Shown in pieces: positions 1-7,963 of a stretch of DNA of 64,000 nucleotides. The notes beneath the pieces are model-generated. The model was not told where the DNA came from. It did not search any database and saw only the letters and a list, made by a program, of their open reading frames with translations. The translations under genes were made by a program, and so were the position numbers. Position 1 is the first letter of the stretch. Each line of letters opens with the position of its first letter. This stretch comes from Bispira polyomma (taxonomy: Eukaryota): assembly GCA_965649765.1 (NCBI GenBank), contig OZ287749.1:38254001-38318000 (forward strand), given 5' to 3'.

Positions 1-1646
1 GCCTCAATCAGGTAGTCAACTGTGATGCTTGCATCCAATGGGGTCATGGTATGTAATCTCTTTTCAGGTCTGTCCCTTTTAGCTGCCTGACTTCGTGTTT
101 GCACTGCATTCACACTTTGGGAATTCTGTTGCGGATCACTTGAAATAACCAGTTGAATATCTTTTCCAGAAGACATCTTCCAGTCTGGATCAGGACTCCC
201 TGGTGACCTCACTCCAGTAATATTTCCCAGCACAAGTGGACAGACAGGATTGTTCATGCACATCGCTTCGACAGTCCCAACAAAATATGGAGTATCAATT
301 TCAATGGTAGCAGAGGACACTCTCTTACCTGTCCCATCCACTAATATACACAGGTGCTTCTTGCCCGTCAGCTGTTCAGGCTCCACCAAGCTTTGCTTTA
401 CCACCACACCAGTACAGCCTGTATCTCTTAAGACATCAACAACATGGGATCCTACTTTTCCTTTTACCACAGGCATGTTCTTCAGAATACCCTTCTGTTT
501 CTCATGTTGATCACATGCCCCACTCACAATAGGAATCTTCTTTCCACATGCCAACTTGATGTTGTCCTGACTGACACAAGCATGCTCACAAGTATGTACA
601 GCACAAGCAGAAGAACCTTCTACACCTTTATCTTTGACCTGAGTCTTTACCGTTTCCTTCATATCTTCAGTAATCGCAGAGGCAATGGTCTTTACCCATG
701 CTTTAGCTTTCAAATGGCAGTCTTTAGCGATATGTCCCATTTTTCCACATTTAAAGCACTTCTTGCCAAAACTACTACCTTGCCTTTTGTTGTCCACTGA
801 AACAGATTTACTAACAGGTGGTTTGGATGTCTGTAAATCAGGATGGGCCGCTAGGTACATCTCTGCCAGTTCCGCCATCTCTGATGCAGTTGTTGGGTTC
901 CTTTCCTTAAGAAAAATAGCAAGACTTTTGCTACTGGCATTAAGAAACTGTTCCCTCACTAATAAGTCTTCAATTCCGTCAAAAGACTTCTCAGTATTGC
1001 TCAGTTCCACCCAACGTTTTAAATAATTACGGAGTCTCTCCATGAACTGACCTGAGCTCTCACCAGGTGTAATTGTACCAGAACGAAACTTGACCCTGAA
1101 GCCCTCATCGTTCAGTTGGTATCTCTTGAGCAAAGCCGTCTTCAGTTTGTCATAATCATTTGCCTCCTCGTTACTGAGTCTTGAATACACTTCCAAGGCC
1201 TTACCAGTTAACAACGCACTAAGATTGATGGACCAACTTTCCTCAGGCCACTTCTGACTTGCAGCGAAACGTTCAAAACGAAGCAAGTAAGCGTCCATAT
1301 CAGACTTCCCATCTTCAAAAACAGGCAACTTTGGAGTATGCGACTTCGTATAATTCACGCTTGAAAAGGTACTTTGCTCAGCCCTGATTGAAACATCTGC
1401 AGCTCTAATCTCCAGTTCTTTCACATCTCTTTCCATCTGTAACCTCTCTCTATCACTTTGCTGTTGCAACTCGACCATATCTCTGTCATGTGCTCTTTTA
1501 AGTCGTCTCTCCTCTCTTTCTCTGTCTTGCACCTCCCTTTCTCTTGCCTGCTCTCCAGCCTGCTCCTCTCTGACAAACTCTCTCAGTTCCAACCCTTCAT
1601 AACCCAACTCCTTCCCGAGTTTAATTAAGCGCTCTAGCTGATCCAT
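1..1646 (-). CDS. Gag-Pol polyprotein, N-terminal part (Gag, protease, start of integrase region); cut by the window edge
   Basis: Matches 6318-7963. ATG at 1646-1644. Absent from the ORF track because its stop lies outside the window. Confidence 0.93.
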   Translation of the reverse strand, partial: MDQLERLIKLGKELGYEGLELREFVREEQAGEQAREREVQDREREERRLKRAHDRDMVELQQQSDRERLQMERDVKELEIRAADVSIRAEQSTFSSVNYTKSHTPKLPVFEDGKSDMDAYLLRFERFAASQKWPEESWSINLSALLTGKALEVYSRLSNEEANDYDKLKTALLKRYQLNDEGFRVKFRSGTITPGESSGQFMERLRNYLKRWVELSNTEKSFDGIEDLLVREQFLNASSKSLAIFLKERNPTTASEMAELAEMYLAAHPDLQTSKPPVSKSVSVDNKRQGSSFGKKCFKCGKMGHIAKDCHLKAKAWVKTIASAITEDMKETVKTQVKDKGVEGSSACAVHTCEHACVSQDNIKLACGKKIPIVSGACDQHEKQKGILKNMPVVKGKVGSHVVDVLRDTGCTGVVVKQSLVEPEQLTGKKHLCILVDGTGKRVSSATIEIDTPYFVGTVEAMCMNNPVCPLVLGNITGVRSPGSPDPDWKMSSGKDIQLVISSDPQQNSQSVNAVQTRSQAAKRDRPEKRLHTMTPLDASITVDYLIE

Positions 1647-1772
1647 GTCACTATGGTTACCTTACACACTACTACTACTGGGGTACAACTTCTGGACAAG
1701 GCACACAAGGCCAACCGTAACACTTTTGATCACTTACACACACTGTATGACTACAGCCACAGAACACTTGAC

Positions 1773-1868
1773 TTGGGAATCCACCCAAAATAATGAGAAT
1801 CCACTCAAATATGTGTGATGAGAATCCACTCTATCACAATCCTAATACTGAGAATCCACTCAGTTATT
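1773..1868 (-). promoter_or_regulatory. Four stem-loops with identical UGGAUU loop in the 5' leader (candidate packaging/dimerisation signal)
   Basis: Plus strand: TTGGG-AATCCA-CCCAA, TGAG-AATCCA-CTCA, TGTGATGAG-AATCCA-CTCtATCACA, AATACTGAG-AATCCA-CTCAGTtATT. Confidence 0.6.
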
Positions 1869-2068
1869 TACCTGAACACTTGTTCACAACGTAATAACCT
1901 TAAGTTGAGTATCCACGCACCCACCCAAATAGTATGAAATCCAACACAACTGTTCCCGGAAATAATACTATGTACCCCCCTAAGCTGATATACATATAAT
2001 ACATGCAACTACCTTACCCTGCCACACCTAGTATATACTTCTATGTTACATGTCACTAAATTTGGGAT

Positions 2069-2086
2069 ATCCTGGTCATGGCACCA
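2069..2086 (-). promoter_or_regulatory. Primer-binding site, probably tRNA-His (repeats every 6317 bp)
   Basis: Minus strand TGGTGCCATGACCAGGAT, 1 nt after the LTR ...AACA. The plus strand ATCCTGGTCATGGCACCA matches the insect-type tRNA-His(GUG) 3' end as I recall it (ATCCTGGTCACGGCA-CCA) at 17/18 nt. Confidence 0.85.
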
Positions 2087-2087
2087 A

Positions 2088-2947
2088 TGTTACATTTATG
2101 TTACATTTTAACACTAAAATGTTGGGTCAAAGATCGTATAGTAGTTCCCAAACCAAGTTTATTCTAAATACATGAAAACAACAACAATATACTATAACAA
2201 AAATAATATTTAAACACCCTAAATATCTGACGCCAGAACTATTAACGGTAATAATATTCCACAAGATGTAAACAAAACAAATGGTAAGTCAATTCAAAGT
2301 TCACAGTTGAACAACAGTTAATTTGCTGTAACTCTACACCAGCAAATAAGGTACGTATCCAGCCTGTATAGCAGTATGGTAATTCTCCTTGAATGTAATG
2401 TACATATAATAGTTCACCAGCATGTAGGAAATCAGAGTAGTCAAAGGTAACCAGTAGCGACCTCATTATACTAGGATCACATCAGTAAGACTTGGGTAGG
2501 TATAACCTCATGTAGCCCAGTTCACTACCAGCTATAGGGTGATGCTCACTATAGTCTACAAATAAAGGACTAAACTACTGAACATTGGGCTTGGAAATAA
2601 ACTAAAGTAGTTCTCAACTGAGTATACATTAAAGCATGATAATAACAACCTACATCTATACAATAAGAAATAAACTACACATTAAACTAAAGAATCCTAA
2701 TGCACAAATTATATAAAGTAATATTTACTCACATTATACACCCCAGTACAAAATAACCCAACTTGCTCCACCTTGTCCTTTTAACATGTGAGAAAGATTA
2801 TACAAAGACAGAAGCCTAAATACCATAACAGGCAATATTCACATATTGAAAATCACACACACACAATCTGTGTTCTAACCATAGTATTTTCGTATTTAAT
2901 TTACACTCAAATAACCTAACCATAATATTTACACTCAATACACAACA
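2088..2947 (-). repeat. LTR (~860 bp), shared between adjacent elements
   Basis: Minus strand ends ...TGTAACA, 1 nt before the PBS (2088 boundary firm). It begins TGTTGTG just after the purine tract AGGGTGGAAGTA (2947 boundary less certain), giving TGTT...AACA termini. Contains AATAAA. Confidence 0.75.
2158..2163 (-). terminator. Polyadenylation signal in LTR
   Basis: Minus-strand AATAAA 70 nt from the LTR 3' end, preceded by a U-rich stretch containing TGTA (…ttgttttcaTGTAtttagAATAAA). Confidence 0.6.
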
Positions 2948-2961
2948 TACTTCCACCCTAA
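2948..2961 (-). promoter_or_regulatory. Polypurine tract (repeats every 6317 bp)
   Basis: Minus strand TTAGGGTGGAAGTA, ~80 nt after the pol stop and directly followed by TGTT. Confidence 0.6.
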
Positions 2962-3040
2962 GACCATACTTGCTATTGTTACAAAAATAACCGCCAACAA
3001 CCTCACCCACAAACTACTGTTCAGCAATCTTAAAAATAAA

Positions 3041-6000
3041 TTACGCTCTGCTCAGATAGTCAGCAGCAACATTTTCTGAACTCCTTATAGCTCTAATCTT
3101 GAAACTAAATGATTGTAAGAACAATGCCCAACGCATAATGCGGCTATTATCCATTTTTGACCTCTTAATGTAAATGAGGGGCTGATGATCAGTCTCAACT
3201 AAGAATTCTTTCCCATACAAATATGGAGCAAATTTCTTGATTGCCCAAACTAGTGATAAGCATTCTTTCTCTATTACAGCATAGTGCTTTTGAGTATCAG
3301 ACAGCTTTTTACTAGCATATTCTACAGGAAACTTGCCATCATCACCTTCCTGCATCAATACCGCTCCTATACCATATTCAGAGGCATCACTCTGCACAAT
3401 AAATGGTTTCGCAAAATCTGGTAATCTTAGAATTGGTCTCTTTGCTAGAAGTTCTTTCAAAGCCTGAAAAGCTTTATCTTGAGGTTCCTGCCACAGTACT
3501 TTGTTAGGTTGACCTTTCTTAGTGAGATCCGATAATGGTGCAGAGATAGCACTGAAGTTGGGAATATACTTCGAGTAGTAACCAATAAAACCAAGGAAAC
3601 TTCGCACCTGCTTCTTGGTCACAGGTATAGGCACTGACAAAATATTCAAAACCTTTTCTTCGTCCGGTTTCATAGAACCATCACCAACATGATTCCCTAA
3701 AAAATTGAGGTTTTTGAAACCTATTTGACACTTTGACGGCTTTACGGTTAAGTGCGCATTTCTGAGTCGCTGGAAGAGTTTCCTCAATTCACTCAAATGC
3801 TGGTCCCACAAAGGCGTGTGACATAGAATATCATCTACAAAACTGTCACAGAAATACAGATCTTTCAATAACTTCCGCACCATCTTGTTGAAGGTTGCCG
3901 TAGCATTTACCAAGCCAAAAGGCATCTTGAGAAAGCGAAAGCTTCCCTGAGGAGTGAGAAAGCACGTCTTATCTTGACTACCTTCTTCCATTGGTATTTG
4001 CCAGTATCCCTTTGTCATGTCAAACTTACTGAAGAATACATCCCCTGACAATTTTGAATATATGTCATTAGCCGTCATCATTGGCTCTGTTGAAAATACA
4101 GTTTGTAGGTTAAGATTCCGATAATCTGCACAGAAGCGAATTTTCCCGTCCTTTTTCTTCACCAGCACAATAGGTGATGCGTAAGGTGAGTCACAACTAC
4201 CGATCACACCCAACTTCAGCATAGTCTCAACTTCTTCATCAACGACCTTCCGGAGATGATAAGGTATGGGATATGGCCTCTTCCTGACAGGCTCATCAGT
4301 ATTCAACACAATTTTGTGCTCTACTAAATCCGTAGTGCCTGGCAAATCAGAAAATATATCTTGGTACTCTTTGAGTAACTGTTGGACTTCTTGCTTTTGA
4401 TTTTCTGTTAGTGTAGGACTAATGGTCACATCTTTGTAAGATTCATTCTGAAGATACGGAAATAAATCAATTAAGTTTTCTTGCGTCTCTTCTTGTTCCT
4501 CCTCAATCAAAGATACAGCCACCATGTCCAATGGTGCACCACCAACAGGCAAGTCACTTCTCACATCACTTTCACGTCGTTCGAGGTAATGCTTCAACAT
4601 GTTAGCGTGAATAACTTTCACCTTCCCTTTCATGCTGACAGAGTAGTCATTCACACCCTTAACATCCATGACCTCATACGGACCTTTCCAAGACATCAAC
4701 AGTTTATTGGCTACAGTAGGCAGTAATACCAGAACCTTATCACCAACTTGGAATTTCCTCGGTTTGGTCTTCTTATCATACCATATCTTCGATTTTGCTT
4801 GATTCTTTCTCAACTCTTCTTGGGCCAACTTACAAGTATCTTCCAATTTATTTCTCAAATCAATAACATACTCATAGGTTGTCTTGACTTCATCTGGGGT
4901 TCCTTCCTTTGTCCACAACTCATGAAGTATCTGCATAGGTCCACGGACAGTTCTTCCATAGAGCAACTCAAATGGTGAAAATCCTAGGCTAGCTTGAGGA
5001 GTCTCTCTATAGGCAAATAAAACTGCCGGAATGTACCGGTCCCAGTCTTTAGGTTTCTCCTGACATAACCTTCTCAGCATTGACTTCAGTACAAGGTGGA
5101 ATTTCTCAACAAGCCCATTGCACATGGGGTGGTACGGTGTAGTAACCAGCCGGTTGATACTCAGCAACCGTGAGACCTCAGACATCACACTGCTCAGGAA
5201 CTGAGAACCTTGGTCACTCAAAACTTCTGATGGCACACCTACTCTTGTAAATATGTTGACCAATGCCTCGGCAACAGCTTCAGAATCTATGCGTTTCAAT
5301 GGAACAACCTCTGGATACCTGGTGGCATAGTCCATCAAAGTTAACATATAACGGTAGCCCCTATCTGAAACTGGATTAATGGGTCCAACCAAGTCAATCG
5401 CTACCCTTTTGAAGGGCGTGTCAATTATGGGCATGTTTTGCAATGGAACTTTTGGCAGTCTTCCCTTCTGTGAAGTCCTCTGGCATATGTCACACGAATT
5501 ACTGAATCTGCTGACATCATTTTGAAGGCCTGGCCAGTAAAAATTCTGCAAAATCTTGTCCGTTGTCTTTCGTATGCCCAAATGTCCTCCAAGTAAAGCT
5601 TCATGCGCAAGCTTTAGTACTTTTGTTCTAAGTATCTTTGGAACCATCAATTGCTTCACCACGGAGCTGTTGACATCAGACAAAAACCTTCGGTAAAGTA
5701 GTCGAGACTTCACTTCAAACCAGGTCACATTGTTGCCTCTAACACATGACTTCTGCCCACTCTTGGCTAACTCCCAATAACGCTCAAGGCTGCTATCAGA
5801 CATCTGGGCCTCAATCAGGTAGTCAACTGTGATGCTTGCATCCAATGGGGTCATGGTATGTAATCTCTTTTTATCTGAAACTGGATTAATGGGTCCAACC
5901 AAGTCAATCGCTACCCTTTTGAAGGGCGTGTCAATTATGGGCATGTTTTGCAATGGAACTTTTGGCAGTCTTCCCTTCTGTGAAGTCCTCTGGCATATGT

Positions 6001-7963
6001 CACACGAATTACTGAATCTGCTGACATCATTTTGAAGGCCTGGCCAGTAAAAATTCTGCAAAATCTTGTCCGTTGTCTTTCGTATGCCCAAATGTCCTCC
6101 AAGTAAAGCTTCATGCGCAAGCTTTAGTACTTTTGTTCTAAGTATCTTTGGAACCATCAATTGCTTCACCACGGAGCTGTTGACATCAGACAAAAACCTT
6201 CGGTAAAGTAGTCGAGACTTCACTTCAAACCAGGTCACATTGTTGCCTCTAACACATGACTTCTGCCCACTCTTGGCTAACTCCCAATAACGCTCAAGGC
6301 TGCTATCAGACATCTGGGCCTCAATCAGGTAGTCAACTGTGATGCTTGCATCCAATGGGGTCATGGTATGTAATCTCTTTTCAGGTCTGTCCCTTTTAGC
6401 TGCCTGACTTCGTGTTTGCACTGCATTCACACTTTGGGAATTCTGTTGCGGATCACTTGAAATAACCAGTTGAATATCTTTTCCAGAAGACATCTTCCAG
6501 TCTGGATCAGGACTCCCTGGTGACCTCACTCCAGTAATATTTCCCAGCACAAGTGGACAGACAGGATTGTTCATGCACATCGCTTCGACAGTCCCAACAA
6601 AATATGGAGTATCAATTTCAATGGTAGCAGAGGACACTCTCTTACCTGTCCCATCCACTAATATACACAGGTGCTTCTTGCCCGTCAGCTGTTCAGGCTC
6701 CACCAAGCTTTGCTTTACCACCACACCAGTACAGCCTGTATCTCTTAAGACATCAACAACATGGGATCCTACTTTTCCTTTTACCACAGGCATGTTCTTC
6801 AGAATACCCTTCTGTTTCTCATGTTGATCACATGCCCCACTCACAATAGGAATCTTCTTTCCACATGCCAACTTGATGTTGTCCTGACTGACACAAGCAT
6901 GCTCACAAGTATGTACAGCACAAGCAGAAGAACCTTCTACACCTTTATCTTTGACCTGAGTCTTTACCGTTTCCTTCATATCTTCAGTAATCGCAGAGGC
7001 AATGGTCTTTACCCATGCTTTAGCTTTCAAATGGCAGTCTTTAGCGATATGTCCCATTTTTCCACATTTAAAGCACTTCTTGCCAAAACTACTACCTTGC
7101 CTTTTGTTGTCCACTGAAACAGATTTACTAACAGGTGGTTTGGATGTCTGTAAATCAGGATGGGCCGCTAGGTACATCTCTGCCAGTTCCGCCATCTCTG
7201 ATGCAGTTGTTGGGTTCCTTTCCTTAAGAAAAATAGCAAGACTTTTGCTACTGGCATTAAGAAACTGTTCCCTCACTAATAAGTCTTCAATTCCGTCAAA
7301 AGACTTCTCAGTATTGCTCAGTTCCACCCAACGTTTTAAATAATTACGGAGTCTCTCCATGAACTGACCTGAGCTCTCACCAGGTGTAATTGTACCAGAA
7401 CGAAACTTGACCCTGAAGCCCTCATCGTTCAGTTGGTATCTCTTGAGCAAAGCCGTCTTCAGTTTGTCATAATCATTTGCCTCCTCGTTACTGAGTCTTG
7501 AATACACTTCCAAGGCCTTACCAGTTAACAACGCACTAAGATTGATGGACCAACTTTCCTCAGGCCACTTCTGACTTGCAGCGAAACGTTCAAAACGAAG
7601 CAAGTAAGCGTCCATATCAGACTTCCCATCTTCAAAAACAGGCAACTTTGGAGTATGCGACTTCGTATAATTCACGCTTGAAAAGGTACTTTGCTCAGCC
7701 CTGATTGAAACATCTGCAGCTCTAATCTCCAGTTCTTTCACATCTCTTTCCATCTGTAACCTCTCTCTATCACTTTGCTGTTGCAACTCGACCATATCTC
7801 TGTCATGTGCTCTTTTAAGTCGTCTCTCCTCTCTTTCTCTGTCTTGCACCTCCCTTTCTCTTGCCTGCTCTCCAGCCTGCTCCTCTCTGACAAACTCTCT
7901 CAGTTCCAACCCTTCATAACCCAACTCCTTCCCGAGTTTAATTAAGCGCTCTAGCTGATCCAT
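3041..7963 (-). CDS. Gag-Pol polyprotein (Gag-PR-IN-RT-RNase H), Gmr1-like Ty3/Gypsy
   Basis: 1640 aa. CCHC knuckle CFKCGKMGHIAKDC (7034-7075); protease LRDTG (DTG 6734-6742); integrase HHCC twice, D(AIDL)-D(SDQG)-35 aa-E(GLVEK), GPY motif WKGPY; Gypsy-type RT (YASPIVLVKKKDGKIRFCADYR, KFDMTKGYWQI, MPFGL, FVDD at 3830-3841); RNase H (SDAS, EKE, TDH, ADYLSR). Confidence 0.97.
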   Translation of the reverse strand: MDQLERLIKLGKELGYEGLELREFVREEQAGEQAREREVQDREREERRLKRAHDRDMVELQQQSDRERLQMERDVKELEIRAADVSIRAEQSTFSSVNYTKSHTPKLPVFEDGKSDMDAYLLRFERFAASQKWPEESWSINLSALLTGKALEVYSRLSNEEANDYDKLKTALLKRYQLNDEGFRVKFRSGTITPGESSGQFMERLRNYLKRWVELSNTEKSFDGIEDLLVREQFLNASSKSLAIFLKERNPTTASEMAELAEMYLAAHPDLQTSKPPVSKSVSVDNKRQGSSFGKKCFKCGKMGHIAKDCHLKAKAWVKTIASAITEDMKETVKTQVKDKGVEGSSACAVHTCEHACVSQDNIKLACGKKIPIVSGACDQHEKQKGILKNMPVVKGKVGSHVVDVLRDTGCTGVVVKQSLVEPEQLTGKKHLCILVDGTGKRVSSATIEIDTPYFVGTVEAMCMNNPVCPLVLGNITGVRSPGSPDPDWKMSSGKDIQLVISSDPQQNSQSVNAVQTRSQAAKRDRPEKRLHTMTPLDASITVDYLIEAQMSDSSLERYWELAKSGQKSCVRGNNVTWFEVKSRLLYRRFLSDVNSSVVKQLMVPKILRTKVLKLAHEALLGGHLGIRKTTDKILQNFYWPGLQNDVSRFSNSCDICQRTSQKGRLPKVPLQNMPIIDTPFKRVAIDLVGPINPVSDKKRLHTMTPLDASITVDYLIEAQMSDSSLERYWELAKSGQKSCVRGNNVTWFEVKSRLLYRRFLSDVNSSVVKQLMVPKILRTKVLKLAHEALLGGHLGIRKTTDKILQNFYWPGLQNDVSRFSNSCDICQRTSQKGRLPKVPLQNMPIIDTPFKRVAIDLVGPINPVSDRGYRYMLTLMDYATRYPEVVPLKRIDSEAVAEALVNIFTRVGVPSEVLSDQGSQFLSSVMSEVSRLLSINRLVTTPYHPMCNGLVEKFHLVLKSMLRRLCQEKPKDWDRYIPAVLFAYRETPQASLGFSPFELLYGRTVRGPMQILHELWTKEGTPDEVKTTYEYVIDLRNKLEDTCKLAQEELRKNQAKSKIWYDKKTKPRKFQVGDKVLVLLPTVANKLLMSWKGPYEVMDVKGVNDYSVSMKGKVKVIHANMLKHYLERRESDVRSDLPVGGAPLDMVAVSLIEEEQEETQENLIDLFPYLQNESYKDVTISPTLTENQKQEVQQLLKEYQDIFSDLPGTTDLVEHKIVLNTDEPVRKRPYPIPYHLRKVVDEEVETMLKLGVIGSCDSPYASPIVLVKKKDGKIRFCADYRNLNLQTVFSTEPMMTANDIYSKLSGDVFFSKFDMTKGYWQIPMEEGSQDKTCFLTPQGSFRFLKMPFGLVNATATFNKMVRKLLKDLYFCDSFVDDILCHTPLWDQHLSELRKLFQRLRNAHLTVKPSKCQIGFKNLNFLGNHVGDGSMKPDEEKVLNILSVPIPVTKKQVRSFLGFIGYYSKYIPNFSAISAPLSDLTKKGQPNKVLWQEPQDKAFQALKELLAKRPILRLPDFAKPFIVQSDASEYGIGAVLMQEGDDGKFPVEYASKKLSDTQKHYAVIEKECLSLVWAIKKFAPYLYGKEFLVETDHQPLIYIKRSKMDNSRIMRWALFLQSFSFKIRAIRSSENVAADYLSRA
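5362..6381. repeat. Perfect in-frame tandem duplication, 2 x 510 bp, in the integrase N-terminal region
   Basis: 5362-5871 equals 5872-6381. Also at 11679, 17996, 24313, 30630, 36947, 43264, 49581, 55898 and 62215. The peptide KRLHTM...PVSD appears twice. Confidence 0.97.

Follow-up and report, generated by a model that had tools for sequence, protein, structure and literature searches.

A Gypsy retrotransposon repeated through the 64,000-nucleotide stretch of Bispira polyomma DNA analysed here (the window; contig OZ287749.1, positions 38,254,001 to 38,318,000) carries a box that, on comparison of sequences, is a real feature, a conserved second match to its primer, host tRNA-His. The box lies outside the primer-binding site (PBS); it is complementary to the tRNA D-arm, with which it likely pairs while the tRNA 3′ end is held on the PBS. 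The best reading of the comparisons, and one that we consider probable, is an extended primer-template complex in which the box aids primer choice and stabilises initiation.

Two matches to tRNA-His in a Gmr1-like element

Throughout the window a 6317-bp unit is repeated in tandem almost perfectly (6 mismatches at lag 6317), and each copy of the unit contains one 860-bp LTR and one open gag-pol frame. The LTR (TG...CA; 2088..2947, minus strand, as all features below) has ends set by dispersed and solo copies in the host genome, which was searched as 1.04 Gb in 75 contigs, and 5-bp target duplications flank 7 of the 8 copies examined. The dispersed copies show the TG...CA LTRs, PBS and target duplication of a Gypsy LTR retrotransposon. 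The PBS (2069..2086) serves a gag-pol frame whose 5′ part lies at 3..1646, with the ATG at 1646, and the neighbouring unit holds a complete single gag-pol (3041..7963) with SCAN, CCHC, protease motif, integrase, RT and RNase H. The gag has a SCAN-type capsid domain (PF02023, E 2e-9, residues 186-272), and the pol order is PR-IN-RT-RH, with integrase at residues 609-951 followed by RT (1273-1430) and RNase H (1496-1624); the protease is visible solely as a DTG motif near residue 414. A SCAN capsid domain followed by PR, IN and RT-RH is the arrangement given for Gmr1-like LTR retrotransposons in the passages available from 10.1101/2025.03.03.638093, which do not describe a primer contact. By its SCAN domain and domain order, the window element is a Gmr1-like Gypsy LTR element; the RT tree comprised the elements compared here.

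Several other properties of the array were observed. In full (G000:C2:38237137-38326434) it runs head-to-tail over 14 nearly identical internal units, with 15 LTRs common to neighbours, and the gag-pol frames across window positions 1-64000 are all open. A matching 5-bp target duplication is absent at its two outer flanks, in contrast to solo LTRs. The integrase zinc-finger region contains an exact in-frame 510-bp duplication (5362-5871 / 5872-6381); two intact elements dispersed in the genome lack it and have 1475 rather than 1645 codons. In contigs of run X1, depth was about doubled over the duplication and one contig, at a depth of 291 versus ~345 in the flanks, spanned the junction, so the duplicated form is present in the reads. 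In the leader between PBS and gag (1789-1867), a 24-bp direct repeat occurs two to three times and is a candidate signal for packaging or dimer formation.

The PBS begins 1 nt past the LTR end and is specific for tRNA-His(GUG). A pattern search of the host genome gave 33 tRNA-His gene matches (control pattern, 0), all reading GATCGTATAGTGGTT in the D-arm, where the pattern itself fixed 10 letters. ARAGORN called His-GTG at both tRNA loci checked, and the Rfam tRNA search, which supplied control tRNAs, gave no His gene among the loci checked. One isodecoder ends in the 15 gene-encoded PBS letters and with CCA matches the PBS at 18/18; the other matches at 17/18. The PBS-matching isodecoder comes from a tandem cluster (G000:C3:12299697-12345633) in which tRNA-His genes alternate with tRNA-Asn genes, variant letters being present in many of the genes.

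The box (2132..2146) is complementary to tRNA-His positions 6-20 through 14 Watson-Crick pairs and one G-U pair, its sole difference falling opposite tRNA G17. Both matches had first been drawn, in an earlier note on this DNA, from tRNAs of different taxa; the host genes bear them out. An 8-bp hairpin (2103..2122) separates box and PBS, and these three elements all lie where that note had placed them. The 7-bp inverted repeat that it described around them (2061-2067 / 2146-2152) proved to be longer, 12 of 13 positions pairing between 2055-2067 and 2146-2158, and base 2146 belongs to both box and repeat. When the 150 nt adjoining the PBS were shuffled with dinucleotides preserved, 1 of 3000 shuffles reached the box score of 14; none of 382 natural LTR windows did, and the next best D-arm score anywhere in the 6317-bp unit, on either strand, was 9. 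These are strict scores; they replaced a lenient score (G-U +0.5) because under the latter non-cognate tRNAs reached 9-13.5.

A candidate polyadenylation signal, AATAAA (2158..2163), has its end 11 nt upstream of the box and is not repeated elsewhere in the 260 nt next to the PBS. From this position, the box would probably span the R/U5 border and form part of the 5′ RNA. The extended tRNA-His complex of the earlier note gains support from the host D-arm and from the relatives described below, the pairing being inferred, whereas its comparison to the bipartite PBS of Ty1 and Ty3 did not survive. A bipartite PBS is a short or split 3′-end match completed by a second segment; here the PBS is a continuous, full 18-mer (18/18), and the contact is therefore extended rather than split.

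Conservation with the His primer and absence with other primers

A His-PBS pattern search of the host genome gave 121 matches, of which the 100 listed represent 91 distinct contexts in 13 clusters. Four clusters are Gmr1-type, namely c4 (the window family), c2, c3 and c5; they form one RT clade (support 97/94), with RT identity to the window of at most 72%. As the earlier note had expected of His-primed relatives, the D-arm box is kept at the LTR end in 4/4 of these families of the genome. Copies score 11-14 in c4 (7 contexts), 11-13 in c5 (6), 11-14 in c3 (8) and 7-10 in c2 (9), and for one copy each the score was reached by 1, 2, 2 and 84 of 3000 shuffles, respectively. The c2 box is only 10 nt long, with 5 of 9 copies scoring 7, and c3 has a fixed A-C mismatch opposite tRNA position 9 in 8/8 copies. 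The edges of the tRNA match vary among the four families (6-20, 7-19, 6-15 and 5-20), the strict core common to the boxes is 9 nt, and fixed differences in c4 and c5 preserve G-U pairs.

The surrounding LTR has changed extensively. When 850-nt LTR stretches of the four families were compared by blastn at E<=0.5, the only matches were the last 44 nt, which include the box, a single patch of 37 nt and scraps of 12-23 nt, and the c3 stretch matched none of the other three. The distance from box to PBS is 46, 34, 29 and 13 nt (the last in c3), and 7-bp hairpins occupy the equivalent place in c2 and c5, with none in c3. In c4 and c5 the box follows the end of AATAAA by 11-12 nt, and the c3 box lies ~54 nt downstream of AATAAA. 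Since the four families have a common ancestor, they count as one origin of the box and not four.

Gmr1 families with other primers served as controls, using host tRNAs taken from the genome. Among five such families, primed by tRNA-Pro (three), tRNA-Arg(ACG) and tRNA-Thr(TGT), none matched its own primer (scores of 5-7, reached by 1452-3000 of 3000 shuffles), and against tRNA-His the same families scored 6-7. A primer switch inside the His-primed Gmr1 clade was not found. Within Gmr1, the element has, as sequences go, two marks of a contact of the HIV-1/ASLV type: a beyond-chance primer match outside the PBS that is kept with the same primer and absent with others. We regard a chance resemblance as barely credible: many windows were scanned and the 10-nt match of c2 is weak alone (84/3000), but the window box is a 1/3000 match, the tRNA register is identical in four families and the controls lack it, and conservation in relatives already refutes chance. 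Separately, in several Pro-primed Gmr1 copies (among L124-L127 and L145-L152) the PBS is interrupted by an insertion of 1 nt or 3 nt that is common to many copies; priming should normally correct such a change.

Boxes in other His-primed lineages

Boxes matching other parts of tRNA-His occur in Gypsy lineages outside Gmr1. Among standard RT-RH-IN elements of the host genome, the box matches tRNA-His 24/26-36 in four related subfamilies (4 to 33 of 3000 shuffles), 18-39 in c8 (0/3000) and 12-28 in c7 (14/3000); c6 and a rearranged group, c1inv, have no box. Altogether 10 of 12 His-primed groups have one; the singles c9-c12, without an RT or IN match, were omitted from family counts. In c7 and c8, AATAAA sits between box and PBS. 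At ~120 nt from the PBS, upstream of AATAAA, three His-primed RT-RH-IN copies (L066 at G000:C2:21342843, L169 and L208) match the 3′ strand of the D-stem and the 5′ strand of the anticodon exactly over 16 nt and 10 nt. Nine other His-PBS copies (L064, L089, L090, L173, L179, L183, L184, L188 and L197) have an inverted-duplicated LTR end and no box; most are without RT and IN matches and they are likely non-autonomous.

A metagenome scan yielded at least 115 loci in at least 76 clusters, many of which are unverified as LTR elements. Most listed clusters are without a box. The anticodon 7-mer (tRNA 30-36) was present on the U5 side in 12 of the 76 listed clusters; the five control strands gave 3, 1, 3, 3 and 1 (Fisher 6e-5 before any correction for the 51 words tested). 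The D-arm 7-mer (tRNA 6-12) was present in 4 of 76 versus 0 in controls (Fisher 7e-4); three of these four are short contigs without a protein match and one has RT only, none being demonstrably Gmr1. Matches of 9 nt or 8 nt to the T-arm (49-57), PAS-like and on the U5 side, were seen in the L294 cluster, L288 and L320, T-arm matches in all occurring in 5 of 76 listed clusters versus 0-1 in controls. In L307 and L385 (metagenome) and L421 (host genome), the PBS complementarity continues well beyond 18 nt, into the T-arm, and in L307 reaches ~32 nt. Primer read-through would give such a match, a tRNA gene with encoded CCA being an alternative source. Among viral contigs there were 12 PBS-like matches, none with a D-arm box by eye.

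The letter after the match is T, not the G37 of the tRNA, in 12/12 anticodon-type clusters (background T, 7/25), a count weakened by the common ancestry of the clusters. In human tRNA-His, position 37 is m1G, a modification that makes reverse transcriptase misincorporate (PMC6675128), and we infer m1G37 in the host tRNA-His too. A stop at 36 fits either methyl-blocked pairing or origin by copying of mature tRNA.

Leu-primed elements were compared over 48 of 111 Leu-PBS sites, grouped into 18 clusters. In one RT-RH-IN family, 11 nt at a distance of 12 nt from the PBS match the D-arm of its own tRNA-Leu(CAG) (5/3000 shuffles); because 18 clusters were tried, this match is only suggestive. Elsewhere, one cluster has an 8-nt match, one Leu(TAA) copy reaches 11 by wobble-rich pairs and most have none. 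The Leu(CAG)-primed Gypsy loci with an 11-nt match to the D-arm of their own primer, L416, L433, L454-L456 (11-22 nt from the PBS) and L426, are a candidate case of natural covariation.

It is possible, though we advance it only tentatively, that long U5 boxes gripping different arms of the primer have arisen repeatedly, each time independently, in animal Gypsy elements, with edges set by tRNA modifications. The arms would be the D-arm in Gmr1, the anticodon arm in at least two other lineages, with boxes stopping just before m1G37, and the tRNA-Leu D-arm in one Leu-primed family. If true, extended primer recognition would be a widespread, sequence-readable LTR code, probably seeded by reverse-transcribed pieces of mature primer, and U5 boxes would be a second target for tRNA fragments.

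These lineages also bear on whether the box is a captured tRNA piece, or a lookalike, kept as a protein-bound DNA or RNA signal for 3′-end formation, transcription or integration. In favour of such a signal are the position of the box in c4 and c5, at the predicted border of R and U5, the strict common core of 9 nt, the non-tRNA T after all 12 anticodon-type matches and the sufficiency of a single origin for the four families. Yet the box is missing from Gmr1 sister families primed by other tRNAs, the parts of tRNA-His matched in unrelated His-primed lineages are different ones, and the distance of the box from AATAAA varies; as for capture, simple primer read-through would be expected to put tRNA sequence after the PBS, not before it. 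We consider this explanation unlikely.

The predicted U5-leader stem and a proposed initiation complex

The extended inverted repeat of the window corresponds to a predicted U5-leader stem, with its U5 arm at 2146..2158 and its leader arm, 1 nt past the PBS, at 2055..2067. Immediately flanking box and PBS, every His-primed Gmr1 family carries an inverted repeat whose sequence differs from family to family. Position-fixed U5-leader duplexes gave -14.0 (c4), -13.7, -8.8 and -17.5 kcal/mol, and cross-family pairings were as strong in 0-2 of ~325 and 0-1 of ~975 cases (for c4, 1/327 and 0/981), in a test chosen after the stems were seen. In an unrestricted stem search with a cross-family null, only c3 was separated among the four families, and the c4 U5 arm pairs with the c5 leader too (-12.7).

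A two-strand cofold never formed the box helix. It was unable to test the model, because box and PBS helices cross in that representation; a fold of three strands, in which the RNA is cut immediately ahead of the PBS, took its place. The three-strand minimum combined the closing stem, the box:D-arm helix and the PBS helix for c4, c2 and c3; for c5 the box helix formed and the stem was replaced by another leader pairing. The box duplex with the 5′ 26 nt of the tRNA was calculated at -22.9 to -25.6, versus -6.3 to -18.7 for 20 natural controls. The net modelled gain from U5:tRNA pairing was better than in 20/20 controls for c4 (-8.9) and c2 (-9.8), with 5/20 controls as good in c5 and 14/20 in c3; the energy model ignores tRNA modifications and the covalent link at the cut, and the freed tRNA 5′ half has a competing hairpin.

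The stems help to weigh two further explanations. A box in R (or U3) might pair with tRNA-His from the RNA 3′ end, so that the primer bridges the genome ends and aids minus-strand transfer or dimer formation. With AATAAA 11-12 nt upstream in c4 and c5, cleavage would fall in or after the box; the boxes of c7 and c8 lie upstream of AATAAA; and contacts at the 3′ end have precedents in Ty3 (PMC5371799) and Drosophila Gypsy (PMC1635307), as far as the passages available from these sources go. The c3 box, however, lies ~54 nt downstream of its AATAAA, and one arm of the family-specific stems is leader sequence that follows the PBS and is present only at the 5′ end, making 3′-end pairing quite unlikely in our view. 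Alternatively, the box could be a target of 5′ tRNA-His halves or tRNA-derived piRNAs, in post-transcriptional regulation independent of priming. 5′ tRNA-His fragments are abundant in animals, D-arm and anticodon boxes fall in the tRNA 5′ half and the anticodon boxes end at 36. We judge this very unlikely nonetheless, as it leaves unexplained both the stems tying box to PBS and why only His-primed families have His boxes, and a silencing site would be expected to disappear from an element.

In the extended complex that we favour, the U5-leader stem on the genomic RNA would close a loop around box, hairpin and PBS. First, 18 nt at the tRNA 3′ end would anneal, and the freed 5′ part (approximately positions 1-20) would then pair with the box, so that both tRNA ends would meet near the hairpin while the anticodon arm loops out beside the closing stem, where, by geometry, positions 20 and 58 would come together. 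tRNA-His would thereby be favoured over other tRNAs and the initiation complex stabilised. At ~45 nt into minus-strand strong-stop synthesis, reverse transcriptase would need to open the box helix, and the box may thus also act as a pause.

Extra primer contacts in HIV-1 are short, strain-dependent and have been debated for decades, and such contacts are otherwise known in a handful of retroelements. The contact proposed here spans 10-15 nt in a predicted stem-closed loop with sequence turnover between families, and sister families are natural negative controls; this combination would make a clean comparative system for primer choice and for whether tRNA modifications bound the contact. The box is also a new mark for LTR annotation and predicts exposure to 5′ tRNA fragments. 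In the literature searched, with most subscription papers outside its coverage, we found no report of a D-arm box in Gmr1 or His-primed Gypsy elements.

Retroviral RNAs form U5-IR and U5-leader stems, and FIV U5 contacts the tRNA 5′ end. In the available text of PMC13191261, ASLV has a U5:T-arm contact. As predicted for the window element, ASLV/FIV-type retroviruses have a U5 hairpin and a stem closing around the PBS with the tRNA contact within, but the tRNA arm or the length differs, and they are retroviruses, not Gmr1-like. HIV-1, in the parts available of PMC13191261 and PMC11181671, likewise has a full 18-nt PBS and a second site upstream in U5; its contacts are A-rich loop:anticodon and PAS:T-arm, and its primer switches are stable only when both sites change. 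The partner in the window element would instead be the D-arm, with a match of 10-15 nt, and the closer analogue of the HIV-1 A-rich loop would be the anticodon-type boxes of the other His lineages. With M-MuLV, the extra contacts formed by unmodified tRNA are lost when the tRNA is native (PMC13191261), which counts against pairing here. Ty3, also of the Gypsy group, has RNA that contacts the primer D arm, but in the accessible portion of PMC5371799 its PBS is split between 5′ and 3′ ends with the D-arm contact in U3, whereas the window PBS is whole, the box is ~45 nt upstream and the primer is tRNA-His. Drosophila Gypsy too has a second tRNA site (11 nt, tRNA-Lys,2), which, in what is available of PMC1635307, lies near the 3′ end and binds the anticodon/T stems alongside an 11-nt PBS. 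By analogy, the window contact would work like the HIV/ASLV type, a known mechanism of which the D-arm box in Gmr1 would be a new form.
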